This document shows positions 1,805 through 56,106 of a stretch of DNA of 64,000 nt, in pieces; position 1 is the first letter of the stretch, and each line of letters opens with the position of its first letter. The translations under genes were made by a program, and so were the position numbers. The stretch is from a phage: sequence record PZ674596.1; one strand, 5' to 3'. The notes beneath the pieces were generated by a model, which was not told the origin of the DNA, ran no database searches, and saw only the letters and a program-made list of their open reading frames with translations.

Positions 1805-4800
1805 ATGAAGGCACTGATGGTTCGAACTGACTTCTCACTTGGGGAGTCGGCTCTAAAAGCAGAAAACGCGGTGAAGATTGCCAGAGAAGCTGGCTACACC
1901 GCTGTAATTTCAGCAGATAGCATGAATATTGCGAGCGTTATTCCACTACAACGTGCCGCTGGTGACGACATGGCGGTTATTTGTGGTGTGAAACTAAACA
2001 TTGTTGATGATCCCACATACGAGCACCGGGCTAAACTTGCTAAAGAATCTATGAGATGTATGGAATCATTAGAGCGAGGACGTAACTACTCGTTTACCGC
2101 TCTAATTAAAAATGAGAAAGGATATCGCGACATCTGCGAACTAATGACGGCGGCCAACACACGAGAACAGTTCTACTTTGTACCGCGTCTCTCGCTCGAA
2201 CAGTTGGTTTCTACATATGCCAAAGGCAACATCATCCTGCTTACTTCCGACATCGGTAGCGTGTTCCAACGCAACGATTTTGCAAAAATCATAAGCACAC
2301 TGATTACAGCGGGTGGAAAAGACAACTTCTATAGTGTGGTTTATCCGCACCCTACCCCATTCTACGACCAGATTAACGTCCGGGCGATGAAAGTCGCCAG
2401 CGCATTGAAAATAGAGCCAGTGGCGTTCTATCCCGCTTATTACGAATCGATCGACGATGCAGACATTAAAGACATTGCGCACATGGTTACGAACAACATC
2501 AAAATCGACCAGCCGCATCGTCTGCGTATCCCCCACCAGCGAGATAACGCCGTCAATGGTCGCCGCCATCTCCTTGAGGCGCTTAAAGCCTTCTCCGTTC
2601 GCATGGATGTGCCGGTAACAGCTGCAATGGCCTCAACAACGCAGGATACCATTATCGATGCCTGCACATGGCGCTGGCATGAATTGCCGCCAGCACTGCC
2701 AAAGATGGCAGACGACGAGCCTGCAACGCTGATGAAACTGGCTGTTGCAGGGCTGCGTAAACGTCTTACCACAAAAGAGTTTGGATACACACCACCTGCT
2801 TCTGAGAACAGGGTTTATGTTGAGCGGCTAAAGTACGAAATGGACACGCTGACTCGCCTGGGATTCTGTGGTTACTTCCTGATGGTACGCGATCTGATGA
2901 ATCACAGCCGTGAAACTGGCATTCCTGTCGGGCCTGGTCGTGGTTCCTCCGCTGGATCTCTGGTGGCATGGTGCATAGGCATAACCAACGTCGACCCAAT
3001 CCGTCACGGTCTTCTGTTTGAGCGTTTCATCAACCCTGAGCGTCTCGACTTGCCAGATGCGGATTTGGACTTCAGCCAGGCACGTCGCCATGAGGTGATC
3101 GAGTATCTGAATGAACGATACGGCGAAGATTACGTTGCAGGTATTCCTAACTTCACATATCTGGGCGCAGCCTCTGCACTACGTGACACCGCTCGTATTT
3201 ATGGTGTGGAGTCCGCAGATATGGCGGTATCAAAAGAGCTGAGGAACGTCGAGGATGATAGCCTTCCATTGGAAGAGCTGCGCGAACAACTGGCAAGTCT
3301 CGACAAATACGCGACAAAATACCCTGATGCATTCAATGCAGCCTGCAAGTTACAAAGCCTTATGCGTGGCTTTGGTAGACATGCGGCAGGGATGATTGTA
3401 GCAGGTGTTCCTCTGACAGAACGTACACCGGTTGAACGACGTGGTGACGCGCGTTGTATCGCATTTGACAAGCGTTACTGCGAGGCTATGGGCCTAATTA
3501 AGCTGGACGTGCTTGGCCTGGCAACTCTCGATTTGCTCGATAGTGCAAAACGCTACATAAAAGAGAACACAGGTGAAGATATCAATCTTGATGCCATTTC
3601 TCTTGAAGATCGCAAGGTGCTGGATGGTTTTGCTGCTGGGTACACTCAAGGTGTTTTCCAGCTTGAATCAGGCCCAATGCGCAAGCTGCTTAAAGATTTA
3701 GGTGGTGGAATTGAGCCAATGAGCTTTAAAACGGTCGTTGCTACGACTGCGCTCTTCCGGCCGGGGCCAATTCAGTCAGGCATGTTGGATGATTATGTTT
3801 CTGTCGCCAAAGGCTTTATGACGCCGGAATCATTACACCCCGTTCTTGATGAACTTACCGCAGAAACAAATGGCGTGATTCTTTATCAGGAACAGACGAT
3901 GAACGCGACTCGATTGCTTGCTGGCTTCACAATGGCTGAAGCTGACGGCGTTCGTAAAGCGATCGGCAAAAAAGACATGGAGAAAATGAAGAGCATGGGT
4001 GAGAAGTTCATCGTTCAGGCTCAAGCTGGCTGGATAGACGTTGAGCTGGAAGATGGCACTACACAGCGCATTCACCGTGCGGAACATTTTAAATGCGAAG
4101 ACGGAACACTGAAAACTGTCGAAGAGGCACTTGAGTACGGCGCAAAACTACCTATAAACGCAGTACGCGTTACAGCGTCACATCCAGGGCTATCAGAGAT
4201 GAAAGCGAAGGAGATCTGGACCGCATTCGAAAAGAATGGTGCCTACCAGTTCAACAAATCACACTCTGTTGCTTACTCCTTAATCAGTTATCAATCTATG
4301 TGGTTGAAAACTCATTATCCCGCAGAGTTTTTCGCTGCTGCTCTCACTATTCTTGGCGAAGATAAACACCAGGGGCTGGTTAAAGATGCGCTGACCTATG
4401 GTATTCGCGTATTGCCACCAGACGTTAACGTGTCATCTAACCGAATCGAGATCCGCACGCTTGAAGATGGCAGCCAGGTGCTGTATGCGCCCTTCTCTGC
4501 TGTGAAAGGGTGTTCTGAGAATGGCTGCCAAGCCATCATGAGAGCGCGAGAAAAAGTTGGCGGCAAATTCGAGTCACTGGCGCAATTCGAAGAAGCTGTC
4601 GAGAAACGTGCCTGTAATAGTCGAGTGCGCGAATCACTGCAAAAAGTAGGTGCGTTTGCATCCATCGAGCCAGGTAGTCTGCCAGCAACTGATCCAGAGC
4701 GTCTCCGCGACCAGGCTGAATTGATGGGAAACCTTGTCATAGACGCAGTTAAAGCCTCACGTCCGTTTGAGATGAACCCCAAACGTTCGGCTGAAATTAA

Positions 4801-5323
4801 CGCACTCATGACACGGATGGCGGCTGAAATGGGCTTAGGTGATGAACTAATCCGCCCCAGCATTGGTATTAAGCCGAAAATCATGATCATTCTGGACAAT
4901 GCGAACGGCAATGATGCTCGAACCGGTTACTTCATGGAGAACGGATACGACGACTTTAAGGCCAAGCTATTGACGGCTGGAGATTTACGCATGGGCGATC
5001 TCTATGTCACAGGCGTTTGCAAGAAGGTTAAAGACAAAGAAAAAGACTACACCAAAGACGAGATCGGCCAGTTCACCGACTTTATACGTGAAGAGATCAA
5101 TCTGGTGCGTCCGACCTATGTGCTGACGTGTGGCAGCCGGGCAACGGCATTGTTTAACAACAAAAACAAGCCATCCGATTTGGTCGGCAGGAAGGAGTAT
5201 CTTCCAGACCTTGACGTTACTGTCTTTTACGGGTTTAACCCCAACATTCTTTACTTCAGACCTGAAGAGGGAGAACGACTAGAAGCGATATTAGCCGACG
5301 TAGCAGAAACTATTAAGACGTGA
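1805..5323 (+). CDS. dnaE: DNA polymerase III alpha-subunit-like replicative polymerase (DnaE family) with divergent C-terminal ~170 aa
   Basis: 1172 aa; conserved DnaE core GYFLMVRDL...GPGRGSSAGSLVAWCIGIT..DPI..GLLFERFINPER; RBS AAAGGTAAAAACAC before ATG. Confidence 0.9.
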   Translation: MKALMVRTDFSLGESALKAENAVKIAREAGYTAVISADSMNIASVIPLQRAAGDDMAVICGVKLNIVDDPTYEHRAKLAKESMRCMESLERGRNYSFTALIKNEKGYRDICELMTAANTREQFYFVPRLSLEQLVSTYAKGNIILLTSDIGSVFQRNDFAKIISTLITAGGKDNFYSVVYPHPTPFYDQINVRAMKVASALKIEPVAFYPAYYESIDDADIKDIAHMVTNNIKIDQPHRLRIPHQRDNAVNGRRHLLEALKAFSVRMDVPVTAAMASTTQDTIIDACTWRWHELPPALPKMADDEPATLMKLAVAGLRKRLTTKEFGYTPPASENRVYVERLKYEMDTLTRLGFCGYFLMVRDLMNHSRETGIPVGPGRGSSAGSLVAWCIGITNVDPIRHGLLFERFINPERLDLPDADLDFSQARRHEVIEYLNERYGEDYVAGIPNFTYLGAASALRDTARIYGVESADMAVSKELRNVEDDSLPLEELREQLASLDKYATKYPDAFNAACKLQSLMRGFGRHAAGMIVAGVPLTERTPVERRGDARCIAFDKRYCEAMGLIKLDVLGLATLDLLDSAKRYIKENTGEDINLDAISLEDRKVLDGFAAGYTQGVFQLESGPMRKLLKDLGGGIEPMSFKTVVATTALFRPGPIQSGMLDDYVSVAKGFMTPESLHPVLDELTAETNGVILYQEQTMNATRLLAGFTMAEADGVRKAIGKKDMEKMKSMGEKFIVQAQAGWIDVELEDGTTQRIHRAEHFKCEDGTLKTVEEALEYGAKLPINAVRVTASHPGLSEMKAKEIWTAFEKNGAYQFNKSHSVAYSLISYQSMWLKTHYPAEFFAAALTILGEDKHQGLVKDALTYGIRVLPPDVNVSSNRIEIRTLEDGSQVLYAPFSAVKGCSENGCQAIMRAREKVGGKFESLAQFEEAVEKRACNSRVRESLQKVGAFASIEPGSLPATDPERLRDQAELMGNLVIDAVKASRPFEMNPKRSAEINALMTRMAAEMGLGDELIRPSIGIKPKIMIILDNANGNDARTGYFMENGYDDFKAKLLTAGDLRMGDLYVTGVCKKVKDKEKDYTKDEIGQFTDFIREEINLVRPTYVLTCGSRATALFNNKNKPSDLVGRKEYLPDLDVTVFYGFNPNILYFRPEEGERLEAILADVAETIKT

Positions 5324-5448
5324 TCCCATAAACATGGCCTCTATGGCCATGTTTTCCCTTATCCCCTCATATCCCCTATCCTCGAACTCCTTGCCTTATC
5401 ATCACAATGATATAATCAATATAAGATGATAAGTAAAAAGGAAAGCAC

Positions 5449-5880
5449 ATGATCACCGATATTTACGAGAAAATAATGTCTGATCTCGAGTTTGACCGAG
5501 ACAATCTGGAGGAAGTCTGGCGTAGACAACCCCGCCTTTTAATGGAGTATGGCTCAAAACTCGCTCATGCAGAAAGAAGTGTCGCAGAGGCAAAACTTAA
5601 CCTTGAAGCTGTTGAAGCAAAGCTATACGACACAGAGCGTAAGAACTTGAGTATGAACGGCATTAAGTTCAACGAATCTGTACTGGACGCTAAGGTTAAA
5701 ACAAACCCACAGTATCTGTCTAAACGGCAGAAGTTGGATGAAGCACGGCACATCGCAGACATATACAAACATGCTGTCGCCGCCTTTTCGCATCGCCGAG
5801 ACATGATCGTTCAGGCGTCAAAGATGGCCATCGTTGAATTAGAGCGATTAGGCTCTGAACGCTTTATTACTCCCCGTTGA
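5449..5880 (+). CDS. hypothetical protein (possible UvsY-like recombination mediator)
   Basis: 143 aa helical/charged protein; start context AAAAGGAAAGCACATG; lies between polymerase and SSB/RecA-like genes; homology not verifiable here. Confidence 0.45.
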   Translation: MITDIYEKIMSDLEFDRDNLEEVWRRQPRLLMEYGSKLAHAERSVAEAKLNLEAVEAKLYDTERKNLSMNGIKFNESVLDAKVKTNPQYLSKRQKLDEARHIADIYKHAVAAFSHRRDMIVQASKMAIVELERLGSERFITPR

Positions 5881-5997
5881 TTTTTGATAGATAATAAGTA
5901 AGTACTGATCTATCATTTAACAGCTCGAAAGAGCCACGAATGAACGAAAGCCCAACGCGCATAGCGCCATCGGCCAAATCACAACAAGGAGAAACAC

Positions 5998-7026
5998 ATG
6001 TCTAAGACATTACTTGATTTGCTTAACAAAACTCGTGAAGACATTGCCGCCAAACGTGGTAACAACGTTGATCTGACTCGCTTAAAAGACGGCGTCAACT
6101 ATATTCGCATCTTCCCGAATAAAGACGACCCAAACGGTAAGTTCTTCCAGACTTTCGGTATGCACTACGTTAAGTATCAGAACGAGGAAGGTAAAGAAGC
6201 AACCAACGCTTATATTTGTGAGCAACATACTCACGGTCGCGCTTGTCAGCTATGCGAAATGGTGATGGAAGGTCGCGCTCGTCACAAGGGTAACAAAGCA
6301 ATGGAAGAACGCATCGGTCAAATGCGTGCCACTCCTCGCTACCTGGTCAACGGCATTCTTTCTGCTCGTGAGGATTTCGCAGATGCTGAGAAATGCCAGT
6401 TAATCGAGCTGCCGTCTACTGTATTCGATGATATCTGCAAAGCAATCACCGAAGACATCGCTGATGATATCGGCAATCCACTGAGCAAAGAGGAAGGCTA
6501 CGCATTCCTGATTAAACGTACTGGCTCTGGTCGCGATACCAAATATGACGTCTCGCCTAAGCGTAAAGTCTACAAAGGCGATATCGAAGATAAATTCTGG
6601 AATACCCAGCATGATCTGATCGCATACGCAAATCAGGCTGATGAAACTCGTCTTCTGTCGACAGTTCGCACTATGGGTCGTCTGATTGGCATCGCTGCAC
6701 CAACTGCCGCAGCATCTGCACCAGCAATTTCCTCAACCGCGAAAACATCGGCTGCGGCACTACCTGGATTTGGCTCTGTCACTGGTCATACGGAGGGTGC
6801 GACTGCTGTAGCTACCGCTCATACCCCAGCTTCTGAACCAACCAGTCTGGTTGATGAAGAAATCCTCCGTGCCGTTGAAACTGAATTTAAACCAGAAGCA
6901 AGTCCCGCTGCCGTTGCAGTATCAGTCAAAGAGTCTGAAGCAGTCGCAGCGACATCTGTAGCAGCCGCATCTGCGACGGAAGATGAAGGTCTGGATGACC
7001 TACTGAGAGAGCTGGACTCTCTGTAA
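5998..7026 (+). CDS. ssDNA-binding protein, T4 gp32-like
   Basis: 342 aa; His/Cys zinc-site-like cluster CEQHTHGRACQLC; Ala/Ser/Thr-rich linker; acidic C-terminal tail DEGLDDLLRELDSL. Confidence 0.65.
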   Translation: MSKTLLDLLNKTREDIAAKRGNNVDLTRLKDGVNYIRIFPNKDDPNGKFFQTFGMHYVKYQNEEGKEATNAYICEQHTHGRACQLCEMVMEGRARHKGNKAMEERIGQMRATPRYLVNGILSAREDFADAEKCQLIELPSTVFDDICKAITEDIADDIGNPLSKEEGYAFLIKRTGSGRDTKYDVSPKRKVYKGDIEDKFWNTQHDLIAYANQADETRLLSTVRTMGRLIGIAAPTAAASAPAISSTAKTSAAALPGFGSVTGHTEGATAVATAHTPASEPTSLVDEEILRAVETEFKPEASPAAVAVSVKESEAVAATSVAAASATEDEGLDDLLRELDSL

Positions 7027-7043
7027 TCCCATTACGTGACCAG

Positions 7044-7072
7044 TAAGGCGTCTACGGACGCCTTACTTTTTG
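7044..7072 (+). terminator. Rho-independent terminator after SSB gene
   Basis: Hairpin TAAGGCGTC-tac-GGACGCCTTA followed by CTTTTT. Confidence 0.6.
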
Positions 7073-7086
7073 GAAGGAATGTACCG

Positions 7087-8031
7087 GTGAATTATCTCTT
7101 CGTAGATGGCAATAGCCTGGGTTATTACCACCAACAATCTGACAAATTGCACAACGGCGAAATGGAAGTACAGGCTGCTTTCGGCTTTGTTAAGAACGTC
7201 CGTCGTTATGCCTCCATCCTCCATGCCCGACCTATGATTCTTTGGGATGGATTTAGTGACAAGCGCCGCGACTTTTACCCGGACTACAAAGCAAATCGCG
7301 ACGACGATCCTGATATGAAAAAGATGAAGGAAGGCTTTGCTATCCAGAAGCCATACATCCTCAAAATGATGACCGCGCTTGGAGTTACCCAACTCATTGC
7401 AAAAGATGCAGAAGCGGATGATCTGGCCGGGCTGCTGGTAGCCAGCATTGCACCGCAGCCAATCGTTGAACACATCTATCTGTTAACAGGCGATAGCGAC
7501 TGGCTTCAGTTAGTTCGCGAAAACGTAAGCTGGGTAAGCCTGCGCGAAGACGCCAAAAACAAGCAGGTTAATTTTGAGCAATTTGCGGAACTGACAGGAT
7601 TCGCTACTCCTCGCGCATTTTTGGAAGCAAAAGCATTACAAGGCGATAACTCGGACAACATTAGCGGTGTTGGTGGCATTGGTGCTGGCGGTGCGAAAGA
7701 GCTGCTGCATGAATGGGGAAGTGTCGCAACGATGGTACGCGGCATCAACGACGGCTCAATCGTGGTTGACAAAGGACGCCATAAGACCGCCTTCAACAAA
7801 CTAGCGAAGAATGCCTTCAACGAGAAAACAGGCTGTCGAATGCTCGAAGCGTTCAAGAGAAACATCACGCTAATGAACCTGATTGAGACGAAGTTTCCGC
7901 CTACCGAAATCGAAACAATCAAAGGCAATCGTGACGTGAAAGCATTCGAGCAACTGTGCTACGAGCTGAATTTCCGTTCGTTCCTTGAAGACCTTGAAGT
8001 GTTTGTTCTTCCATTCGAAAGGTATTGCTAA
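7087..8031 (+). CDS. 5'-3' exonuclease / flap endonuclease (T4 RNase H / T5 D15-like)
   Basis: FVDGNSLGYY N-terminal nuclease motif and H3TH motif GDNSDNISGVGGIGAGGAKELL; start placed at in-frame GTG 7087 after GGAAGGA, because table start 7036 lies inside the upstream terminator hairpin. Confidence 0.8.
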   Translation: MNYLFVDGNSLGYYHQQSDKLHNGEMEVQAAFGFVKNVRRYASILHARPMILWDGFSDKRRDFYPDYKANRDDDPDMKKMKEGFAIQKPYILKMMTALGVTQLIAKDAEADDLAGLLVASIAPQPIVEHIYLLTGDSDWLQLVRENVSWVSLREDAKNKQVNFEQFAELTGFATPRAFLEAKALQGDNSDNISGVGGIGAGGAKELLHEWGSVATMVRGINDGSIVVDKGRHKTAFNKLAKNAFNEKTGCRMLEAFKRNITLMNLIETKFPPTEIETIKGNRDVKAFEQLCYELNFRSFLEDLEVFVLPFERYC

Positions 8032-8297
8032 TGCTTAAATCGATTATCAATGGCGCTACAACCACCCCTGCCCAACTGGCAAAAGAAATTGTCTTTTATC
8101 ACGGTGAGTACGCTGTCATCGCACTGCCGTCAATTCTAGGCGCTGCCGGAATGAAAGCGACAGATCGCGAGTTTGGATTAGTCAGCGAGCAGGTCGTAAA
8201 AATCCTCGCTCGTGTATCCAGACTCCTTAACCACGATGCGATTGTATTCGACGAATCCGCCGCTTTAAAACGAATCAACGAAACAAAAGGAGCCTGA
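8031..8297 (+). CDS. hypothetical protein
   Basis: 88 aa from ATG overlapping upstream stop (TAATG); table ORF starts 6 nt earlier at TTG. Confidence 0.4.
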   Translation: MLKSIINGATTTPAQLAKEIVFYHGEYAVIALPSILGAAGMKATDREFGLVSEQVVKILARVSRLLNHDAIVFDESAALKRINETKGA

Positions 8298-8299
8298 TC

Positions 8300-9373
8300 A
8301 TGGCAAAAGGAAAATCCGCACTGGCACTTGCTCTGAAAAAGAAAATCGGTAGCAACGACGAAATTCAGAAAGTAACTCATTGGATTGATACAGGCTTTCC
8401 ACCGTTAAACAAAGCTATTTCTGGTCGTTACGATGGCGGCTTCCCATGTGGTCGTATCGTCGAAGTATTCGGTCCTCCAAGTGCAGGGAAAACGTTCCTT
8501 GCAACAGCAGCGATGATCTCCGCTCAAAAACAAGATGGTCTGGCGGTATTCCTCGATCATGAAAACAGTTTTGACGTTGGCCTGGCTGTAGCCAATGGCC
8601 TGAACGCAGATGAGGATGACGGTCAGTGGGTATACAAGCAGCCTGATACCTTCGAAGACTCTGTAGAGTTGATCGGCACAATTCTTAAATTGGTACGTGA
8701 TGAAGAGCTTATTCCTGAATCAGCACCTATCTGTATCGTGGCTGACTCACTTGCGTCTATGGTTCCGAACTCCAAAGCCGAGAAGTTCGAAAAGATGGCT
8801 GAAGGCACTGCCAAAGACAAAGATCAGCTAAACATGAACGACAATACGGCACTGGCTCGTGCGACAAGTGCGAACTTCCCTACTCTGGCTTTGTGGGCAC
8901 GCAAATACAACGCCTGCATCATCTTCTTGAATCAGGTTCGCACAAAAATCGGTGTAATGTTTGGCGACCCTACTACGTCGCCAGGTGGAGATTCACCGAA
9001 GTTCTACGCTTCTGTACGTATCCGTCTTGGTGCATCGGTGATGAAGGATGGTAAAGAGAAGATCGGCCAGGACGTAGGCGCAGAATGCATCAAAAACAAA
9101 GTTGCACCACCGTATGGCAAATGCACCTGGAAATTCTACTTCGATCCTACTCGTGGCCTCGACGTTATCGAATCGCTCGTCGAGTACATGCTGGAAGAAG
9201 GATACCTGCCAAAGAACGCCAGCGGGCGAGTTGAAATTGGTGACAAGAAATACACCAAATCGCAGATCGTCGAGATGTATCGGGAGAAGCCACTGGCTGA
9301 AATCATTGCGGCTTTGCAGGCAATCGACGACCGAAGAGCAAAAGACAACCCCACCGAGTCAGTAGAAGAGTAA
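8300..9373 (+). CDS. RecA-family recombinase (UvsX/RecA-like)
   Basis: 357 aa; RecA-type Walker A VEVFGPPSAGKTFLA; RBS AAAGGAG. Confidence 0.75.
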   Translation: MAKGKSALALALKKKIGSNDEIQKVTHWIDTGFPPLNKAISGRYDGGFPCGRIVEVFGPPSAGKTFLATAAMISAQKQDGLAVFLDHENSFDVGLAVANGLNADEDDGQWVYKQPDTFEDSVELIGTILKLVRDEELIPESAPICIVADSLASMVPNSKAEKFEKMAEGTAKDKDQLNMNDNTALARATSANFPTLALWARKYNACIIFLNQVRTKIGVMFGDPTTSPGGDSPKFYASVRIRLGASVMKDGKEKIGQDVGAECIKNKVAPPYGKCTWKFYFDPTRGLDVIESLVEYMLEEGYLPKNASGRVEIGDKKYTKSQIVEMYREKPLAEIIAALQAIDDRRAKDNPTESVEE

Positions 9374-11348: not shown

Positions 11349-11563
11349 GTTTACAGTAAAGTTTATATAAGTTAGTATCTACCTATCATGAAGATTTTTA
11401 TTGAATACTTGTTACTCATCGTTTCAATAGCTTTTGTCATCGACTGCATTTTCACTGGTGTCATTCGTAAAGTCTTTTCCCCGGTGCACGACGTAGTCAT
11501 AAACGCTTTGGCTATCGTGCTCGTATTTAATTCAGCATTTGATGTAATCAAAGAGGTGGCAGC

Positions 11564-11899
11564 ATGAAGACCATTCCATTCGCGCTGTTGTTTCTTTCTT
11601 CGATCGTTGTGGCCGACACCACTGTTTATCAGTGTGAAATGTCTGTAGCCGACGTTAAGAATGGCGCTCTTACCGACGTCATAAAAGCACCATATGGAGC
11701 GATGGTCGTAGACAGCGGCGACCAGTTCTATGTTGTGCGTGACGATCGAGTGTTGTCATCCCCATATCTCACAAATCGTAATGGCAAATTAACCGGCGTC
11801 GGAGAAGACCACTTCGTATACAACAAATACAAGGGCTTCTATGGCGTTCACGCTTCTCAGCAAAGCTACCTTTTCGATGACTGCAAGGAGGTTGGGTAA
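11564..11899 (+). CDS. secreted hypothetical protein
   Basis: 111 aa; N-terminal signal peptide MKTIPFALLFLSSIVVA. Confidence 0.45.
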   Translation: MKTIPFALLFLSSIVVADTTVYQCEMSVADVKNGALTDVIKAPYGAMVVDSGDQFYVVRDDRVLSSPYLTNRNGKLTGVGEDHFVYNKYKGFYGVHASQQSYLFDDCKEVG

Positions 11900-12111
11900 T
11901 GGCATTAACACTGGCAGGTCTGGAAATCGAGAAAACAAGCGGCTACTGGCGTGCTAAGGGTTTCAAGCAGCCTGGCATTCTTGAGCGTCTGGAACGTGAA
12001 GATGGGTATATCGTCCACCAGCGGCGTGAATGGCGTATGTACGATCCAGAAACAGGAAAACTGACTACAAAAGCCGGAACACTTTGGGGTCTGTTAAAGA
12101 AAATACACTAA
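11899..12111 (+). CDS. hypothetical protein
   Basis: 70 aa; ATG overlaps upstream stop (TAATG). Confidence 0.35.
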   Translation: MALTLAGLEIEKTSGYWRAKGFKQPGILERLEREDGYIVHQRREWRMYDPETGKLTTKAGTLWGLLKKIH

Positions 12112-12158
12112 ATGCAAACTGACTGCGGCACGTTCCGCAGTCATATTTCATAGTCGTC

Positions 12159-12691
12159 ACCGCTGACAGCATACACAATCAACTACCGCTGATAGCATAT
12201 CGAGAGTCTATCTCACCGCTCACAGCATACTTTACTCGATTTTTTACCGCTGACAGCATACTTAAGAAATTGCATGAATAATGTGTCCCGGTATGGGTAT
12301 AACCAGAACAAAATTACCGCTGGCAGCATACGAATGTCTGACATATACCATTAATTACCGCTGATAGCATATCCAAACAAAAATTCCTCAATAAAACACC
12401 GCTGACAGCATACGTTCTATCAGGGAGTAGCAGGCAATAAATGCCTTTCACTACAAGCAATCAGCGCAATAGCAATAGAATGTTAGTGAGCGCAAACCTA
12501 TATGGAATGCACTCTTCGAGGTTAGTAACCACTGGGGAGGTATGACAGAGCATTGAGTGGTGATAGATGATTTACCGCTCACAGCATACGTTCATCTCAC
12601 TATACCGCTGGTAGCATATCTTTAACCGTTCACAGCATACTTTTCAGAAAAATAGCCGCTGATAGCATACATTTCACCGCTGACAGCATAT
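12159..12691. repeat. iteron array: 12 direct copies of 16-bp ACCGCTGACAGCATAC (incA-like, downstream of repA)
   Basis: Copies start near 12159, 12185, 12215, 12246, 12316, 12357, 12398, 12574, 12604, 12625, 12655, 12676; all in one orientation, 1-2 mismatches each. Confidence 0.85.
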
Positions 12692-13785
12692 CAAAGCAGT
12701 TTGAGACTATTGGAAAGGATCTCAATCATCTTGATATTTTCAGGCGTCAAATTCTGCGAAAGTTCGGTTATCTTGTTGATAATGTTCTGTTTGGCATCAA
12801 TTTCCCCAGCTTTCTCATCTGGTTTTTTGGGTTCGATGTCTTCAGGTTTTGGCGGTGCGACTTTGAGTTTTGGATTGCGGCTGTGAATCTGGATATAGAT
12901 CGACCGCCCACGCTTAATCTCGCTGTATTCGAGATAGCCCAAATCTTGGAGAGCTTTTAAGCCGTTACGTATAGTCTGATTCTGCGAGCTGACATTCCTG
13001 CTACTCAAATTGAGTCGCGCACGCAATCGAGCAAGCGATACCGGCGCAGGCTTGGTTGGAAGACTTTCGATGAAGGTGTACAGAGCCTGTGCTGTTTCTT
13101 TGCGTGGTAGCTTATTGATAACCTTTAACTGCAAAAGAACCTTATGGTCAAAGCGATATAGTTCGGCCAGCTTCGGTTCTGCATAGAACACCACCGTATC
13201 TTTCTGCTCGTTGTAGTCCACGCTATTGATGAGGTGCACCATCAGAAGCGAGATCTTGTTAGAGCCGTCGACGTTCTTTTCTTCATACGTTCTCTGGAAA
13301 GACAGAGTTGTACGCATGATCTTCAAAAGACTGTTTGTAAGCCGGTCGCGGAGTGTTTTGCGGATCTGTGACGATGGATAGCCACAAAACTTAGCAAATT
13401 TCGTGATGCTTAACTCGACACGACCGTTAGGTTCGCCGTATTCTGCCAGCGAACGCACAACGCCCACCCACGTTTTGAAATCATGATCCATGTCGAGACG
13501 AGGACCGGTTATCTTGATATCGGAATAGCCTTCAGAACGGGCTACTTCGAGCTGGACAAGCTCCTTTGAAGCATCGATCTCATTTGGCTTGTTACGTTTA
13601 CTGTATTTTGTTCCCTTAAGCGTGGGGACGAACAACCCCAGTCGCATCAACGCAATTGGTTGGACTGTATTGTTGCTATTAGGGACAAGTTCCCCTGTGT
13701 ACAATTCAAGGGAACCTTCTTCAAAGTTGTCGATGTTATCTTCTACTTCTTTGTTATTTTTACCTTTTTTATTTTTTGTGGACAT
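12691..13785 (-). CDS. repA: plasmid replication initiator RepA (P1 RepA / RepFIB-like)
   Basis: 364 aa from ATG 13785 (the table's N-terminal 40 aa is read-through of the iteron region); motifs SNNTVQPIALMRLG, DIKITGPRLDMD, LYTFIESLP, HSRNPKLK match my recollection of P1 RepA; flanked by iterons on both sides. Confidence 0.8.
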   Translation of the reverse strand: MSTKNKKGKNNKEVEDNIDNFEEGSLELYTGELVPNSNNTVQPIALMRLGLFVPTLKGTKYSKRNKPNEIDASKELVQLEVARSEGYSDIKITGPRLDMDHDFKTWVGVVRSLAEYGEPNGRVELSITKFAKFCGYPSSQIRKTLRDRLTNSLLKIMRTTLSFQRTYEEKNVDGSNKISLLMVHLINSVDYNEQKDTVVFYAEPKLAELYRFDHKVLLQLKVINKLPRKETAQALYTFIESLPTKPAPVSLARLRARLNLSSRNVSSQNQTIRNGLKALQDLGYLEYSEIKRGRSIYIQIHSRNPKLKVAPPKPEDIEPKKPDEKAGEIDAKQNIINKITELSQNLTPENIKMIEILSNSLKLL

Positions 13786-13805
13786 GTGGACACCTTTGTC
13801 ATTCA

Positions 13806-13907
13806 ACCGCTGACAGCATACTTGATTTGCCGCTGACAGAATACCAAAAACAGTTGGCAGCATACGGTGAACCGCTGACAGACTATCAATTACCGCTGAC
13901 AGCATAC
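13806..13907. repeat. upstream iterons (4 full + 1 half copy), incC/origin-like
   Basis: Same 16-bp iteron near 13806, 13829, 13871, 13892 plus half-site GGCAGCATAC near 13856. Confidence 0.75.
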
Positions 13908-13947
13908 ATGAACATGACTTCAGACCAGTCGTGGCGCGGGTTACAGC

Positions 13948-14020
13948 GATCGGGGATCTTATTTGATCTATATAAGGATCTATCTATGGATCTCTTTATT
14001 AGGATCTATCCTGTGGATAT
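13948..14020. promoter_or_regulatory. origin-like region: six GATC sites in ~60 bp plus DnaA-box-like TGTGGATAT
   Basis: GATC at about 13948, 13955, 13965, 13977, 13989, 14003; CCTGTGGATAT at 14010-14020; next to the iterons. Confidence 0.55.
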
Positions 14021-14106
14021 GTGAATAATTAAAACAGGCATTTACTACCTTCGGCGCACCTGGTGGGTTATCGTTGCCTCGGCTAACAATCACAGAAAAA
14101 TGACAT

Positions 14107-14751
14107 ATGGATCTAAAACGCACGCGCTGGGTTCGTCGTCTTGAAGACGGCTCCTACACTATCGAATCAAATTCCAACCTGAATAAGCAGAAGTTGCTTT
14201 GTGACATCTGCGGTATAGCGGCGAAGTGCCCGATCTACGAAACCAGAATTAAACTTGATAAGGCTGGTGTGAATTTTCATTTAAACAGTTGCATCAGGTA
14301 CGTTCCATTACTCGCATTTCGTAAACCGATCATCGGATTGGATGCCCCCTACTTCAACACACTCCGTTCAGGTGTGACGTGGCGAGATCGTTTATCACCA
14401 GACAAGCTGATTTGCCTCGTATCCGCAGACACAGGGAAAATCATCCGTTTTGGGAAAGTAGACAAGGTTTACTCAGGCCCAGTAGACGAAATGTTGCGGA
14501 AACACAGCCGGTTTAATCATCTCTGTATGGGTGGTGAGAAAATCGAGAAGGTAGAAGAAGTGATCCGCAAATCCTACGGACACTTTCTGACCAAAGATAG
14601 CCTGCTCACCGCAATCTACATCAGACATGTAAAACGTGAGTTCGACCTCGAATACCACAGCGAAGAAGAGCTTAACCTTGTTGACCCACGTCCAAAAGCT
14701 GGCGTCATAAGCATAAACGCAGCGCGTAAAAAGCCCACTGACGCGCTGTAA
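14107..14751 (+). CDS. hypothetical protein
   Basis: 214 aa; first gene after replicon; no recognised motif. Confidence 0.45.
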   Translation: MDLKRTRWVRRLEDGSYTIESNSNLNKQKLLCDICGIAAKCPIYETRIKLDKAGVNFHLNSCIRYVPLLAFRKPIIGLDAPYFNTLRSGVTWRDRLSPDKLICLVSADTGKIIRFGKVDKVYSGPVDEMLRKHSRFNHLCMGGEKIEKVEEVIRKSYGHFLTKDSLLTAIYIRHVKREFDLEYHSEEELNLVDPRPKAGVISINAARKKPTDAL

Positions 14752-15005
14752 CCCTCCAGATCGTATATTGGCGTAGATAGAATCTACGCCTCCTCAAAAT
14801 AGCTCTCATAGCGTTCTACAGTGATCCTGTCTTATTTTTAGTCATACAGACAAGCAAAGTTGCGCCACAATAAATAGGTATATACTTACTTATAAATTTT
14901 GTATATTAAGGCGCTCGTTTCATTCATAACATACCGTTATGCATAGTTGTTTACCTTCTCATTGCTCTTAAAATTTGTATCAAAATAACCACAAAGGAAA
15001 AACAC

Positions 15006-16091
15006 ATGACTTTGCCATACGGCGTCATTTCTGACTGCCACTACCACAAATGGGATGCGTTCTCCACGACGAACGCAGAGGGACTTAACTCCAGACTTGA
15101 AATACAGTTGGAAGCAACGAAAGAAGCAGCCATCGCCATGAAGAAGGCCGGTTGTAAGTACATGTTGGTTGCCGGTGATACATTTCACGTCCGAGGAACT
15201 GTGTCCCCTTCTGTTTTGCATTACGTAACTGAAACGTACAAGTGGATTATCAACGAGCTTGATCTGACAGTAGTAATGCTGGCCGGTAATCACGATCTTG
15301 AAACCAACGATTCAGTATATAGCGCCAACGCAGCAGCATCGCTGAGTTCTATCGGCGTGGTAATCGTATGTGGCAAACGCCCACACTCAATAAAAATTGG
15401 TGATGTGACTGTCCACCTGATTAGCTGGCGTAACAATCATGCGGAGCTTATCAGCGATCTGAAAGCATTACGTAAGAGCGTAGAAGGTGATAATCATGAC
15501 GTTGTTATCCATACATCCATTAACAAAGCCATTCCAACAATGCCTGACGTCGGTATCGATGCGCAGGAGTTAAAGGATATCGGCTTTCGTCTCGTGCTTA
15601 GTGGGCATTACCACAACCACAAAGAGGTCATTCCTGGAGTTATCAGTGTCGGTGCGCTGACCCATCAAAATTGGGGAGATGTTGGATCTCTGGCTGGTTA
15701 CATGATCGTAAACCCGGACGGCAGTTTCAGTCACTACGAAACCAGTGCGCCTAAATTCATTAACCTGGAAGATTATGTTGCCGATGACCAAATTCGCGGC
15801 AACTACGTGCGTTTCCGCGCCGTAATTGAGAACGATGAAGAAGGCATTAAGTACCAGAACATCCTCAAAACAATGGGTGCAAAAGGTGTCGTGTGCAACT
15901 TCATCCGTAAGTCATCAATGATGGAAGGGACAGCAAGCACAACGGAAACCAGCAAAATCGATAGCCTGGGAGAGTCGGTATCTGCTTATTGCAAGATTGT
16001 CCACGATACTGACGGCGGATTTGATCTGAGCAAGTTGGATATTTTGTGTCAGGAAATCCTCACCGAAGCGGAGAGTTCGGAGGCTGTGTGA
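15006..16091 (+). CDS. SbcD/Mre11-like nuclease (T4 gp47-like)
   Basis: Calcineurin-like phosphoesterase motifs DCHYH, GDTFH, GNHD, GHYH in order; start context AAAGGAAAAACACATG. Confidence 0.8.
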   Translation: MTLPYGVISDCHYHKWDAFSTTNAEGLNSRLEIQLEATKEAAIAMKKAGCKYMLVAGDTFHVRGTVSPSVLHYVTETYKWIINELDLTVVMLAGNHDLETNDSVYSANAAASLSSIGVVIVCGKRPHSIKIGDVTVHLISWRNNHAELISDLKALRKSVEGDNHDVVIHTSINKAIPTMPDVGIDAQELKDIGFRLVLSGHYHNHKEVIPGVISVGALTHQNWGDVGSLAGYMIVNPDGSFSHYETSAPKFINLEDYVADDQIRGNYVRFRAVIENDEEGIKYQNILKTMGAKGVVCNFIRKSSMMEGTASTTETSKIDSLGESVSAYCKIVHDTDGGFDLSKLDILCQEILTEAESSEAV

Positions 16092-16132
16092 GGCAAAGTC
16101 GTTATGGGAGCTTTCGAGACTTTGCCATCACG

Positions 16133-16324
16133 ATGAAAAGACTTGAACGAGGCCAGACGGTGATGTTTCACAAGCCCTACCCGCCACAAGGAAATCCCGT
16201 AGCGTTTTATCTTGGAAGGTTAACCAGAAAAGGCGTATTGAGGCGCAGATCCTTCCCGGCGCATACGGAGTTCAGATTGAAAGAAGGTCAAAAGCTAACA
16301 CACGGTATCAAAGGTGTTATATGA
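16133..16324 (+). CDS. small hypothetical protein
   Basis: 63 aa from internal ATG of table ORF 16046..16324, which otherwise overlaps the SbcD-like gene. Confidence 0.3.
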   Translation: MKRLERGQTVMFHKPYPPQGNPVAFYLGRLTRKGVLRRRSFPAHTEFRLKEGQKLTHGIKGVI

Positions 16325-18237
16325 AGTTTTTAAAGCTCCAGGTTGAGAATTTTATGGCTATCGCCAGCGCGGAGGTCGAGTTAGATCAGCGTGGTTTAGT
16401 GCTCATTCAGGGTGTTAATAGTGATGATAGTTCCGCATCAAGTAATGGCTCTGGAAAGTCAACGCTAATGAATAGCCTGATGTGGTGTCTTTATGGCGAA
16501 ACAGCTCATGGTGTGAAGGGTGACGATGTGTTGTCTACCGACCATGAAAAGAACTGTCGTGTTGCAGTAACCATCGAGGATGAAGGCAAGAGATATGCGA
16601 TCATTCGTCACCGTAAACACAAAGAGTTCAAAAATCGGCTTATCGTTCGTGGTGAAGACGGCGATATGACGAAAGGCAAAGATGCGCTGACGCAAGAGTT
16701 CGTCGAGCGTCTGATCGGTGCATCTAAAGAGGTTTTCATGGCTTCCATCTATGCGAGCCAAGAAGCTATGCCAGATTTACCTGGAATGTCCGACAAAAAC
16801 CTCAAAACCATCGTAGAAGAAGCCGCTGGCGTTGACAGACTGACACGCGCCTACGCTATTGCTCGTGAGCGAGCTAATGCAGCTGCCGCACGTATGGATG
16901 TGGTTAAAACCAAATTGGAGTCGACAATCTCGACCATTGAGGCAACACAGTCAGAAATTGAGTCAGCGAAAGCCTCCTCTGAATCATGGGAGCAAGAGCG
17001 TTCTAAACGTTATGACGATGCCCTGGCTGGGCTGGCCAGTGCCGAAGTTGAGTTAACGGAAGTTGAACTTGAGATCCGCACTCTTCCCGAACAGATCCGT
17101 GATACCGAGAAGGCAATCGAAAGTGAGCGCAAAAAGTTAGCCTCAAAAGAAGAACATGACGCCAAGTTGCTCAAAGTTCGTGGTGCGATAACTGATATTC
17201 GGGCAAGCATCAAAGCTACAGAAAATAGTCAGGCTGATGCAATGAGCCGCGCGCGTAATTTTAAGACCAAAGCAGAAGAGGTTGGTACTAAAGTGGGATC
17301 ACCATGCCCTACTTGTGGCAAAGCCTACTGCGAAGAAGATCTATCAACGGTGAAGGAGAATTTCATTGAACAAGCACGTCAGGAAATTGGTCAGGCGAAG
17401 ACACTTGCAGAGGCAATGGCTAAACACAAAACGAATCTTGAGAAAGCGTTAAGCATTGAGTCTGCCCTTGTTAAAACGACACCTGATGTAACGGCTATCA
17501 TTGCCCGGATTGAAGAGCTTACGAAACAACTCTCATCTTTGCGTCATCGTGAGAAGGAGGTTGTTGCTATTGAGTCTCTTGTGACTCGTGCTCGTACTGA
17601 GGTCGATCGTATATCAAAAGAGATTAATCCGTTTATTGCTCTTATCGCCAGACACGAAGATAACCTGGTATCCAGTAAGTCTACCTTCAAGTCCTTAAAA
17701 GATGAGTTGAAGGCTATTCAGGAACAAACGTTGCTATTGGAAAAAGCTCGTCAGGTCTACTCTCCTGCCGGGGTGCGTTCTCATATTTTGACGTCTGTTA
17801 CGCCTTTCCTGAATACACGCACTGCCGAGTATCTCAATACGTTGTCTGACGGGAATATTACTGCTGAGTGGTCGACGATGGATGTCACTAAAAAAGGTGA
17901 GTATCGCGACAAATTCAACATTAGTGTGCAGAAGAAAGGTTCAAGTAAGTCGTTCCAGACCCTCTCTGGTAGTGAGAAGCGGAAGGTTCGCATTGCGTGT
18001 TCTTTGGCATTGCAGGATCTGGTTAGTAACCGGGCGAGTAAAAACATCGATTTGTTTATCGGCGACGAAATTGACGATGCACTCGATACAGCCGGTCTTG
18101 AACGCCTCATGGGTATTCTGGAGTCCAAAGCTCGCGAGCGAGGTACTGTGCTGATTATCTCCCATAAAGAGATGAAGTCATGGTTCCGGGAAACTATTAC
18201 GCTGGAAGTTAAAGAGGGGCGCAGCTATGTCGTTTAA
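16321..18237 (+). CDS. SbcC/Rad50-like ATPase (T4 gp46-like)
   Basis: N-terminal Walker A NGSGKST, long coiled coil with central CPTCGK zinc-hook-like motif, C-terminal DEIDD Walker B. Confidence 0.8.
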   Translation: MKFLKLQVENFMAIASAEVELDQRGLVLIQGVNSDDSSASSNGSGKSTLMNSLMWCLYGETAHGVKGDDVLSTDHEKNCRVAVTIEDEGKRYAIIRHRKHKEFKNRLIVRGEDGDMTKGKDALTQEFVERLIGASKEVFMASIYASQEAMPDLPGMSDKNLKTIVEEAAGVDRLTRAYAIARERANAAAARMDVVKTKLESTISTIEATQSEIESAKASSESWEQERSKRYDDALAGLASAEVELTEVELEIRTLPEQIRDTEKAIESERKKLASKEEHDAKLLKVRGAITDIRASIKATENSQADAMSRARNFKTKAEEVGTKVGSPCPTCGKAYCEEDLSTVKENFIEQARQEIGQAKTLAEAMAKHKTNLEKALSIESALVKTTPDVTAIIARIEELTKQLSSLRHREKEVVAIESLVTRARTEVDRISKEINPFIALIARHEDNLVSSKSTFKSLKDELKAIQEQTLLLEKARQVYSPAGVRSHILTSVTPFLNTRTAEYLNTLSDGNITAEWSTMDVTKKGEYRDKFNISVQKKGSSKSFQTLSGSEKRKVRIACSLALQDLVSNRASKNIDLFIGDEIDDALDTAGLERLMGILESKARERGTVLIISHKEMKSWFRETITLEVKEGRSYVV

Positions 18238-29922: not shown

Positions 29923-30516
29923 ATGATTGCAGCCGAAAAAATCAAACAGCGAAAGCGCGACAACTCTCTTCGTGACCTCTGGAGAACACCTGACTGGCTG
30001 TTTTCTGCCATTCAACGTTATCTTGGAGTGACATTTGATGTTGACGTTGCCTGCAACAAGGACAATGCAAAGCTGCCTAATTTCATAGGCGTTGAGCGTG
30101 ATGCTTTGAAATCTGAATGGGGACAGCCAGGTACAATTGCCTTCCTCAATCCACCCTACTCCAAAATCTACCCCTGGATTGATGCGGCTATACGTGAGCA
30201 GGCTCGTGGAGTTACAACAGTGATGCTAATTCCTCAATCCCTAGATACAAAGTGGTATGAGCGTGCAACAGAGTGTGCGAATGAGACGATTATTCTGTCT
30301 GGTGGCCGCGTAGCGTTTGTCGAGCCTGACGTAAATCTGGGTCAGGTAGAAGTAAACATCAACCCAGGTGGCAGTATGCTCGTTGTTTTTCGAGGATTCT
30401 GTCAGGACGCTGGGCACTCTATAAGCAAGATCCCTTTGGACGTCATGAAAAGTCTGGGAGGGTATGATCCTGCGAATGTGATCAGGAAAAAAAGACCATC
30501 AAAGAAGGCTGCTTAG
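29923..30516 (+). CDS. phage-type N6-adenine DNA methyltransferase (Dam-like)
   Basis: 197 aa; catalytic motif FLNPPYS; small size typical of phage Dam family. Confidence 0.75.
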   Translation: MIAAEKIKQRKRDNSLRDLWRTPDWLFSAIQRYLGVTFDVDVACNKDNAKLPNFIGVERDALKSEWGQPGTIAFLNPPYSKIYPWIDAAIREQARGVTTVMLIPQSLDTKWYERATECANETIILSGGRVAFVEPDVNLGQVEVNINPGGSMLVVFRGFCQDAGHSISKIPLDVMKSLGGYDPANVIRKKRPSKKAA

Positions 30517-44643: not shown

Positions 44644-44800
44644 CCCGTCTCCTTTATTTTAATTTGCGCAATTGTCGCCTTGTAGTGTACTCCAGCTACG
44701 ACATTTAATCATTTATGAGAAATGCTGTTATCACATGGCAGACATAAGGCCATTTTGTTACTATCAAGCCCCTTTTCACTACAAAGAAGTAATGCCTACT

Positions 44801-56047: not shown

Positions 56048-56106
56048 CATATACAAAATATTTAATTGCTGTTAACATTTAATCGTTCAGACATAGGGAA
56101 AGTCCT

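Follow-up and report, generated by a model that had tools for sequence, protein, structure and literature searches.

The locus described here lies on the - strand of the window, i.e. the whole stretch of 64,000 nucleotides of phage DNA that was analysed, and is composed of an initiator gene, repA, with arrays of a short repeated unit (iteron) on both sides. Its components, together with a hairpin at the outer edge and a methyltransferase gene located elsewhere in the window, were the following:

12120..12143, both strands: hairpin of 9 bp (6 G-C pairs) with a terminator-like score, inverted repeat I2
12160..12412, - strand: distal control block, seven direct iterons spaced by 41, 41, 70, 31, 30 and 26 bp
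12413..12574, - strand: control-array spacer of 162 bp, with a conserved core at ~12481-12536
12575..12690, - strand: proximal control block, equivalent of incA, five direct iterons spaced by 21, 30, 21 and 30 bp
12691..13785, - strand: repA, 364 aa, Rep3/WH1-WH2 class, P1 RepA/RepFIB family (Pfam Rep3_N)
13807..13906, - strand: five origin iterons, equivalent of incC, direct, with start-to-start distances of 21, 21, 21 and 23 bp
13907..13947, - strand: GC-rich spacer, CGCTGTAACCCGCGCCACGACTGGTCTGAAGT..., between the GATC cluster and the first iteron
13948..14006, - strand: AT-rich cluster of six GATC (Dam) sites, five as AGATC(C/A) heptamers and one as CGATCG
14012..14028, - strand: two tandem DnaA-box-like 9-mers, TTATTCACA and ATATCCACA, each with 8/9 matches and overlapping by 1 nt
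29923..30516, + strand: phage-type Dam methyltransferase (Pfam PF05869 (Dam), 2.9e-38)

The first-pass annotation had placed the replicon at 12159-14020, a range which proved right except that the DnaA boxes continue to 14028. It had also announced 12 downstream and four to five upstream copies of a 16-bp iteron; 12 and five were found and the 16-bp unit was confirmed. All 17 copies were on the same strand and displayed the unit R-TATGCTGTCAGCGG-T (in repA orientation), that is, a 14-mer with conserved flanking R and T. With up to three mismatches allowed, the corresponding + strand 14-mer CCGCTGACAGCATA was matched 22 times in the window, versus 5.0 +/- 2.3 times in shuffled sequences (n=100; the largest count was 11 and 0/100 reached 22), and 17 of the 22 matches were clustered on one strand. 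Twelve iterons were found downstream of repA (12160-12690) and five upstream (13807-13906); one of the latter (13851-13864) displayed three mismatches, yet was in perfect register.

The 12 downstream iterons were all direct and were split 5 + 7 by the 162-bp spacer. The repA stop codon was directly abutted by the first proximal iteron, and likewise in all relatives examined. At the outer edge of the array, the hairpin closed a convergent operon of the + strand (genes 11564-12111). Neither a DnaA box nor a GATC cluster accompanied the downstream array in window scans for each. The distal block comprised four copies in PhiR41_1 and five to six in AnCo3 and Cronobacter, while downstream iterons totalled nine in PhiR41_1 and also nine in pPMK1-B. 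Among relatives, downstream repeats ranged from ~4 to 12 whereas the origin array was essentially fixed at five phased slots, as would be expected if the downstream array serves titration or handcuffing.

The predicted RepA-like initiator was confirmed as such, its family membership being settled by homology to P1 RepA and by the Pfam match. It matched Pfam Rep3_N (E 3.9e-9; 37.5 bits for a cut-off of 22.4), as did P1 RepA, and displayed 46% identity to P1 RepA over residues 20-284 of 286 (BLASTP, E 3e-86). PHROG 775 was matched at 5e-133, and a tblastn search with RepA also recovered repA of P1 and P7. A PDB sequence search returned no match at E <= 1, and NCBIfam returned none for the window RepA nor for P1 RepA. 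Identity was 48% to RepA of SSU5 and 85% to the Klebsiella pKpn-type RepA. Family members were present in more than 5000 plasmid records, ~50% identical among the matches listed and annotated as RepB-family or RepFIB, while a scan of genome contigs displayed two loci only, from Klebsiella sp. and Rosenbergiella. Purifying selection on repA was apparent from pN values of 0.04-0.19 versus pS values of 0.65-0.89.

The likely ribosome binding site of repA is AAGGTG at 13791-13796. Translation from the PGAP start at 13905 (404 aa) would traverse the origin iterons; in the PhiR41_1 record, repA begins at the 364-aa start. Only 21 nt separated the last origin iteron from the repA ATG, so that any promoter of this gene has to be inside the array or further upstream. 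A consensus sigma-70 scan of the - strand displayed no canonical repA promoter; a relaxed scan yielded a single candidate, TTGATA-19-TATGCT (13889-13859), situated inside the origin array and having a 19-nt spacer.

At the outer edge of the origin, the DnaA-box-like site noted earlier turned out to be a tandem pair (14012-14020 and 14020-14028, - strand). Matches of 8/9 to the DnaA box were not enriched in the window (18 versus 15.3 expected); the significance of the pair is derived not from counts but from its position and its homology to the annotated DnaA-binding site of P1 oriR, TTATCCACATTATCCACT, with which it aligned. Perfect TTATCCACA boxes occupied the same position in AnCo3 and in the Cronobacter, Rosenbergiella and Klebsiella relatives. 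The GATC sites, expected as six in ~60 bp, started at 13948, 13955, 13965, 13977, 13989 and 14003 and thus fell within 59 bp. No other place in the 64 kb displayed at least four GATC per 70 bp, whereas the total in the window was ordinary (267 versus 250 expected). The region 13955-14035 had a G+C content of 28%, versus 46% for the window. This cluster is presumed to be the DNA-unwinding region, the site of methylation-dependent initiation and the target of SeqA sequestration.

Homology of the origin DNA to P1 oriR was evident element for element. Each of the five Dam sites annotated in P1 had its counterpart among the GATC sites, the sixth of which corresponded to a degenerate AGGTCC in P1, and relatives kept six-site clusters. 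The GC-rich spacer aligned with CGTTGCAGGCCGCGCCACGTCTGGCTTAGAAGT of P1, a similar block being found in RepFIB plasmids. Over the 126-bp origin core, 96 of the 130 alignment columns were identical (74%), with a score of 52 versus -14.8 +/- 5.6 for shuffled sequences.

The order of parts and the iteron layout of P1 were taken from its annotated GenBank record. P1 displays the same succession of DnaA boxes, GATC heptamers, GC-rich spacer, five iterons, repA and iteron array. Iterons of P1 incC are spaced by 21, 21, 21 and 22 bp (21, 21, 21 and 23 bp in the window), and the first iteron of P1 incA also starts at the end of repA. GATC sites are six in the window and five in P1. The proposed incC-repA-incA organisation held in that each element was homologous, while the downstream array differed in the orientation, number and layout of its iterons: P1 incA is composed of nine contiguous iterons, three direct and six inverted, whereas the window displays 12 direct copies split 5 + 7. 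With 12/12 direct iterons in the window against 6/9 inverted in P1, the looping geometry may differ. The P1 iteron is GATGTGTGCTGGAGGGAAA, unlike the unit of the window, which implies a distinct specificity and presumably a distinct incompatibility group. Relative to P1 RepA, the protein was extended by 31 aa at the N-terminus and 55 aa at the C-terminus.

In P1, parAB-parS comes after incA, whereas the array of the window was followed by small convergent hypothetical genes; a type Ia parAB operon with parS was not there directly downstream of the control array. The whole maintenance block of P1 is therefore not conserved, though the locus is homologous to P1 oriR. Virion genes were of the SSU5 siphovirus type for this element and of a myovirus for P1. 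Both are low-copy plasmid prophages encoding their own Dam, that of P1 being the product of dmt; P1 also carries Cre. In the present element, the Dam gene lay outside the replicon locus and was annotated as 'phage N-6-adenine-methyltransferase' in a relative. Its product could methylate the origin GATC sites.

Other relatives fell at various distances. The replicons of pECOH89, p09EL50, AnCo1-2, pECAZ162_2 and PhiR41_1 were essentially the same as that of the window (99-100% nt), with nothing material different. The Klebsiella elements pKPHS1 and pPMK1-B ('IncpKPHS1') shared 85% RepA identity as well as the iteron consensus and layout, whereas in the description of IncpKPHS1 the iterons reported downstream of repA are only four and no domain was recognised in RepA (PMC6735626). 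Initiators of the relatives were annotated as RepB-family in databases, and the plasmids were typed IncFIB or rep_cluster_488. Layout and iteron consensus were kept in Klebsiella, Salmonella, Cronobacter and Rosenbergiella relatives despite saturated synonymous sites in repA, and conservation of the locus covers five genera.

SSU5, pHCM2 and Cyrano (pLF82) displayed the same neighbourhood, with a 214-aa divergent gene and small convergent genes. RepA of SSU5 (48% identical, as given above) is of similar length (354 aa), and iterons again flank repA on both sides, with a GTGGTYAC... motif pair within the downstream array as in the window. The SSU5 iterons, TATCCACTGTAG(A/T)GAG, are of another specificity, and its downstream array mixes direct and inverted copies whereas that of the window is all direct. 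The GATC cluster and DnaA boxes of SSU5 were more degenerate, the origin core of the window being nearer to P1 than that of SSU5 is. Cyrano, of SSU5 type, is a ciprofloxacin-inducible phage-plasmid for which 5.5 copies per chromosome were measured (PMC9928086).

RepFIB (IncF) initiators were ~50% identical to RepA among the matches listed, and the RepFIB origin follows the same design: a DnaA box, a cluster of five GATC sites, phased iterons, repA and downstream iterons. The RepFIB iteron is ACATAAGCTGTAG..., some of its downstream copies are inverted, and neither of the two plasmids examined contained the ACTAAC motif pair described below. Their hosts are conjugative plasmids, not phages.

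The core of the 162-bp spacer was a pair of motifs, CCAGTGGTTACTAACCT and AGGTTTGCGCTCACTAACA, separated by 19 nt. The pair was found with the same 19-nt spacing in AnCo3, the Cronobacter plasmid, pPMK1-B and SSU5, where flanks diverged, and was absent from P1 as from the two RepFIB plasmids. Conservation of this pair of GTGGTYACTAAC-like motifs thus extended over E. coli, Salmonella, Cronobacter and Klebsiella elements, even to SSU5 with its different iterons. Two explanations of this pair were rejected. As regards a scattered operator, the full 13-mer occurred only once in the window and near-matches were at chance level; a looser 12-mer search added only isolated matches with two mismatches on the relative plasmid. 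As an RNA stem (AACCT/AGGTT), it was contradicted by inspection of the aligned copies, since the pairing is disrupted in AnCo3 and Cronobacter with no compensatory change. A permissive Rfam search of 11800-14300 returned no RNA family, hence antisense or ctRNA-type control was not indicated. Separately, one of the 2-mismatch matches was a palindromic GGTTACTAACC site inside the sbcC-like gene of the relative plasmid.

It is conceivable, although we rather doubt it, that the pair is bound by an additional factor, be it a protein of the host or a regulator of the phage, which would modulate titration of RepA or handcuffing, so that the control array would not be a plain incA. Plasmid copy number might then be coupled, for instance, to the lysis-lysogeny state, and the pair would add to a P1-type replicon a level of regulation that is new and peculiar to phage-plasmids of the SSU5 supergroup.

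Over 100 circular plasmids of ~109 kb (among them pECOH89, p09EL50, AnCo1/2 and pECAZ162_2) and phage PhiR41_1 displayed ~99% identity to the window; for p09EL50 the value was 99.8% nt. The PLSDB search returned 141 plasmid records, most of them circular, ~109 kb long and non-mobilizable. The replicon was present in 120 of the 5,426 complete E. coli genomes; its 185 places were all on plasmids, with none on a chromosome, and the locus was 98-100% conserved in ~115 E. coli plasmids. Its location was exclusively plasmidic. The plasmid pECOH89 was isolated physically as plasmid DNA, and its RepA was reported identical to that of p09EL50 (PMC3999498). In pECAZ162_2, which was collinear with the window at 94-99.6% identity, the window-type replicon was the only one typed in PLSDB, and the rest of the plasmid encoded terminase, portal, capsid, tape-measure and tail proteins. 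Two deposited phage genomes, PhiR41_1 and CMS-2020a, match the plasmid carriers in size.

The suggestion of a plasmid prophage was borne out by these plasmid and phage records, whereas the argument initially advanced for it, the lack of an integrase in 64 kb, was weak: pECAZ162_2 carried a tyrosine recombinase of the Phage_integrase family, annotated as 'site-specific integrase', ~2.8 kb beyond the left end of the window. The conclusion stands without that argument. In the literature, pECOH89, AnCo and pSLy3-type elements are assigned to the SSU5 supergroup. With its collinear genome, SSU5-type siphovirus genes, plasmid replicon and circular form of ~100-115 kb, the element is an SSU5-supergroup phage-plasmid. 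A 222-aa MinD/ParA-type ATPase and a partner gene were found on a relative plasmid, outside the window.

Neighbouring genes encoded gp32-like, UvsX/RecA-like and SbcCD (gp46/47-like) proteins as well as NrdAB, Td and DHFR. Their designation as T4-like replication genes was a loose one, however, the polymerase being a DnaE-type Pol III alpha and the helicase DnaB-like.

Taken together, these data support a P1/RepFIB-family, iteron-controlled replicon of the low-copy plasmid-prophage type. The locus is very probably the plasmid-maintenance replicon of an SSU5-supergroup phage-plasmid from the lineage that comprises pECOH89, p09EL50, AnCo1/2 and PhiR41_1, homologous to P1 oriR-repA-incA and to RepFIB, and functioning as follows. 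The binding events, autorepression, handcuffing and dependence on Dam and SeqA are drawn by analogy from the biology of P1, F and RepFIB. RepA monomers would bind the five phased origin iterons and, with host DnaA at the two adjacent boxes, open the AT-rich region of GATC heptamers, where the host replisome would load. Since the repA promoter is proposed to be located inside the origin array or upstream of it, binding of RepA there would also repress the gene. The 12 downstream iterons would titrate RepA and handcuff with the origin iterons, thereby holding copy number low. Firing would need full Dam methylation of the GATC cluster, by the host Dam and possibly by that of the element, and the hemimethylated origin would be sequestered by SeqA after replication, which would limit re-initiation. 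Counting against this explanation, the element has its own DnaE-type polymerase, gp32-like SSB and DnaB-like helicase, and the replisome used in lysogeny could differ. The failure to detect a canonical repA promoter, the 8/9 DnaA boxes of a class not enriched in the window and the all-direct control array also weigh against it.

Three other explanations were weighed. That the 12-iteron array serves not, or not only, negative copy control, and is rather a partition centromere, a second origin or a transcriptional roadblock, appeared quite improbable. In its favour, the array exceeds P1 incA in size, contains direct copies only and is interrupted by a conserved element other than an iteron; the transcription units on either side converge on it, a bidirectional hairpin marks its edge and, unlike in P1, no par operon is adjacent. 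However, its repeats share their sequence with those of the origin, the first copy directly adjoins the repA stop codon exactly as in P1 incA, their number varies (~4 to 12) while that of the origin array is essentially fixed at five, a separate small ParA and partner gene exist elsewhere on the element, and the array is devoid of DnaA box and GATC cluster.

Marginally less probable still is a vestigial RepA-iteron locus, the prophage being kept by its phage replication module acting at another origin. The large replication gene set carried by the element would be in keeping with this, and the searchable literature yielded no experiment on this very origin. Against it stand an intact repA under strong purifying selection, an iteron consensus and origin layout conserved across genera, the 98-100% conservation of the locus in ~115 E. 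coli plasmids and its status as sole plasmid replicon typed in a relative. Moreover, P1 oriR is distinct from the lytic-replication genes of P1, so that possession of a phage replication module does not make the locus redundant. Finally, an integrated prophage, or one inserted in a larger plasmid with the replicon as incidental cargo, is hardly credible: the tyrosine recombinase of relatives just outside the window and a few larger carrier records (152-198 kb) are outweighed by the lack of chromosomal places in 5,426 complete E. coli genomes, by carriers which are mostly circular, non-mobilizable, 105-115 kb long and collinear with the window, and by the deposition of PhiR41_1 and CMS-2020a as phage genomes of the same size.

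The plasmid-maintenance replicon retained here is already known and catalogued, P1/RepFIB-type replicons of SSU5-like phage-plasmids being typed IncFIB by standard tools, and no concept is changed by the finding. Published descriptions of relatives are thinner than the anatomy mapped here. This map, with its five origin and 12 control iterons, P1-homologous Dam/DnaA core and correct repA start, is of use for annotation, for the design of curing or incompatibility tools and for reading copy-number mutants. The locus sets the copy number, stability and incompatibility of its phage-plasmid lineage, which is present in ~2% of complete E. coli genomes and includes carriers of ESBL genes such as CTX-M-15 (pECOH89, AnCo1/2).

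A single repeat family dominated positions 11500-14800, as found by sequence reading and with a repeat finder, its core on the + strand being CCGCTGACAGCATA. A pattern search of the 64-kb window allowing up to three mismatches retrieved 22 matches, against 5.0 +/- 2.3 in 100 shuffled sequences (largest 11; 0/100 reached 22). Of these, 17 clustered on one strand at 12160-13906; read along the initiator gene repA, the 16-bp iteron was R-TATGCTGTCAGCGG-T.

Features of the replicon and associated genes (upstream and downstream are in repA orientation)
12160-12690: downstream iterons, 12 copies in all
12160-12412: distal downstream block, seven iterons (spacings 41, 41, 70, 31, 30 and 26 bp)
12413-12574: spacer between the two downstream blocks, 162 bp
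12575-12690: proximal downstream block, five iterons (spacings 21, 30, 21 and 30 bp)
12691-13785, - strand: repA, 364 aa, ATG preceded by an AAGGTG ribosome-binding site
13807-13906: upstream (origin) iterons, five copies (spacings 21, 21, 21 and 23 bp)
13948-14006: six GATC sites within 59 bp
14012-14028: two tandem DnaA-box matches (8/9 each)
14107-14751, + strand: 214-aa protein with Cys-rich motifs (PHROG 2105), divergent from the origin
1805-9373 and 15006-18237: replication/recombination module surrounding the replicon
29923-30516, + strand: phage-type Dam methyltransferase (PF05869, 2.9e-38), relevant to a GATC-rich origin

The GATC cluster adjoined the upstream iterons and was directly followed by the DnaA boxes. 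It was the only spot in the window with at least four GATC per 70 bp, the overall GATC total being ordinary (267 vs 250 expected), and the 80 bp around it displayed 28 % G+C vs 46 % for the window. The first-pass annotation, which had reported 12 downstream and four to five upstream copies of a 16-bp iteron, six GATC in ~60 bp and a DnaA-box-like site, was correct in each item, and the iterons were far more numerous than in shuffled sequence.

The Rep-family HMM search proposed in that annotation was run and matched RepA to Pfam Rep3_N above cut-off (37.5 bits vs 22.4); RepA also matched PHROG 775 (E 5e-133) and was 46 % identical to P1 RepA over P1 residues 20-284 of 286 (E 3e-86). Among phages, tblastn retrieved P1, P7, SSU5 (48 %), Cyrano and Klebsiella phage-plasmids (85-87 %); among plasmids, matches to the RepFIB / 'RepB family' initiator group exceeded 5000 records and, among the matches listed, those outside close relatives were ~50 % identical. 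Compared with P1 RepA, the protein carried 31 additional N-terminal residues (1-31; 13693-13785), which are Lys/Asn-rich, and 55 additional C-terminal ones (310-364; 12694-12858), in which a linker rich in Pro, Lys and Glu leads into a stretch predicted to be amphipathic. These extensions had no counterpart in P1 RepA and could not be aligned with SSU5 RepA; they were kept at 74-92 % identity in relatives. Against relatives of four other genera, pN was 0.04-0.19 and pS 0.65-0.89 (synonymous sites saturated), and repA is under strong purifying selection. In identical plasmids, RefSeq/PGAP places the start of the gene 40 codons earlier, at the ATG at 13905 (404 aa), from where translation would run across all five origin iterons. 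The record of PhiR41_1, a phage of the same lineage, adopts the 364-aa start (ATG at 13785), which is more plausible and considered correct here.

In P1 (GenBank AF234172), oriR comprises, in repA orientation, a DnaA-binding site of two tandem boxes, then five Dam sites, and five incC iterons at 21, 21, 21 and 22 bp containing the repA promoter. These are followed by repA, nine incA iterons, the first of which begins at the repA end, and parA-parB. The window displayed the identical order of parts with nearly equal spacings. Counted from the DnaA boxes up to the first iteron, the origin core measured 126 bp vs 121 bp in P1, with 96/130 alignment columns identical and a score of 52 vs -14.8 +/- 5.6 for shuffled sequence (largest 12), and the likeness thus extends past organisation to sequence. 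Part order, RepA identity and this alignment bore out the earlier proposal that the locus mirrors the P1 incC-repA-incA organisation. Every P1 AGATCC heptamer had a counterpart; the window counted six GATC instead of five because a P1 position decayed to AGGTCC corresponds to an intact site here. The two RepFIB plasmids examined shared this core design, which thus characterises the P1/RepFIB family as a whole. In contrast to P1 incA, in which six of nine iterons are inverted, all 17 iterons shared one orientation; the control array was larger and split, and was not followed by a par operon. A 222-aa MinD/ParA-type ATPase and a small partner gene were located elsewhere on the relative plasmid pECAZ162_2.

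The order DnaA boxes, GATC cluster, phased origin iterons, repA and downstream iterons touching the stop codon was common to pPMK1-B (Klebsiella pneumoniae), a Klebsiella sp. contig, Rosenbergiella, AnCo3 (Salmonella Derby) and a Cronobacter plasmid, which also kept the iteron consensus. Most relatives displayed six GATC sites, the Klebsiella sp. contig four. The origin array consisted of five phased slots, three to five of which were within the mismatch threshold in each relative. Downstream iterons numbered 12 in the window, ~11 in AnCo3 and Cronobacter, nine in PhiR41_1 and pPMK1-B, six in the Klebsiella sp. contig and ~4 in Rosenbergiella. A downstream array that varies in number beside a constrained origin array fits titration or handcuffing by the downstream copies.

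The spacer at 12413-12574 contained a conserved core (~12481-12536) composed of CCAGTGGTTACTAACCT, 19 nt and AGGTTTGCGCTCACTAACA; the first motif includes the near-palindrome GGTTA-C-TAACC. The pair recurred with equal spacing in AnCo3, Cronobacter, pPMK1-B and SSU5, with diverging flanks, and in pPMK1-B it was placed after the iteron array rather than inside. It was found neither in P1 nor in the two RepFIB plasmids examined, was not scattered within the 64-kb window and had no Rfam match. An RNA stem was rejected, aligned copies displaying no compensated pairing. This pair inside the control array is the sole loose end with some potential.

The 2-kb locus was 99-100 % identical to PhiR41_1 and two 'phage CMS-2020a' records, and had matches in 141 PLSDB plasmids, the majority of E. 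coli and Shigella origin; 135 of the 141 were typed non-mobilizable. Those listed were largely ~105-115 kb and included p09EL50 (E. coli O104:H4), AnCo1/2 and one 111,741-bp record. The whole window was collinear with the E. coli plasmid pECAZ162_2 (94-99.6 % identity), the remainder of which codes for terminase, portal, capsid, tape-measure and tail-fibre proteins; the lineage is classed as 'phage-like plasmids' or SSU5-supergroup phage-plasmids (PMC3999498; PMC7969092; bioRxiv 10.1101/2025.09.12.675607). The locus was present in 120 of 5,426 complete E. coli genomes; all 185 occurrences were plasmid-borne, none chromosomal. pECOH89, of the same lineage, was purified as plasmid DNA (PMC3999498), and Cyrano, an SSU5-type relative, displays 5.5 copies per chromosome and is ciprofloxacin-inducible (PMC9928086). 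These data give good support to a low-copy plasmid prophage. The first-pass annotation had deduced this state, as probable, from the lack of an integrase in 64 kb. None was found in the window, according to the relative's annotation and Pfam scans of ORFs from window-specific segments, but the reasoning was unsound: a Phage_integrase-family tyrosine recombinase (6.8e-10), annotated 'site-specific integrase', is encoded on the relative plasmid (NZ_CP019013.1, 100767-101870), ~2.8 kb outside the left end of the window. Instead of integrating into the chromosome, this enzyme may resolve dimers in the manner of Cre/Xer.

The surrounding module included genes for a DnaE-type Pol III alpha (1172 aa), a gp32-like SSB, a 5'-3' exonuclease, a RecA/UvsX-like recombinase and SbcD/SbcC-like nucleases. 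The earlier description as T4-like fits this module only in part. The 214-aa Cys-rich protein had no Pfam match; its gene occupied an equal position in SSU5 (SSU5_070), pPMK1-B, AnCo3 and Cronobacter, and may serve the replicon as an accessory gene or have no link to it. Further genes of this E. coli phage-plasmid comprised one for a FljA-like 'repressor of phase-1 flagellin' (54623-55144, - strand; PF03614, 3e-82), adjoined by a segment (~55138-58106) that did not align with pECAZ162_2 and harbored a gene for an HNH endonuclease (56170-57303). Two host housekeeping genes had homologues on the element, apbC (Fe-S cluster carrier; 43543-44643, - strand) and metG (methionyl-tRNA synthetase; 44672-46834, + strand), both annotated on pECAZ162_2 as well.

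While anatomy, homology, conservation and extrachromosomal state are shown by the data above, we infer a mode of operation by homology with P1, on the basis of its GenBank annotation and of the replicon studies of Chattoraj, Abeles, Austin, Brendler and colleagues. RepA monomers would occupy the five iterons of the origin and, in concert with DnaA on its two boxes, open the AT-rich heptamer region. RepA on these iterons would also repress repA, the promoter of which must be situated within or upstream of the origin array since the array stops 21 nt short of the ATG. The twelve downstream iterons would tie up RepA and form pairs with those of the origin, thereby limiting copy number, while the GATC cluster would render firing dependent on Dam methylation, with possible SeqA sequestration after replication.

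The observation made in the first pass was thus confirmed and its interpretation supported. The replicon is already known and the element family well described: identical database entries carry a plasmid replication initiator label and the types IncFIB or rep_cluster_488, and typing tools already list SSU5-type replication genes as IncFIB (bioRxiv 10.1101/2025.09.12.675607 among the sources). No paper setting out this origin in detail was found, the description of the sister Klebsiella group being limited to four downstream iterons and naming no domain in RepA (PMC6735626), and the present map is therefore a modest annotation improvement rather than a discovery. SSU5 displayed the same repA neighbourhood as the window but a different iteron, TATCCACTGTAG(A/T)GAG (extracted locus 2270-2400 and 3505-4060), with direct and inverted downstream copies and a more degenerate GATC/DnaA core. 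The SSU5 supergroup therefore comprises at least two Rep/iteron specificities, in agreement with the 48 % RepA identity between pECOH89 and pLF82 (Cyrano) given by the pECOH89 authors (PMC3999498), and the two are probably mutually compatible.
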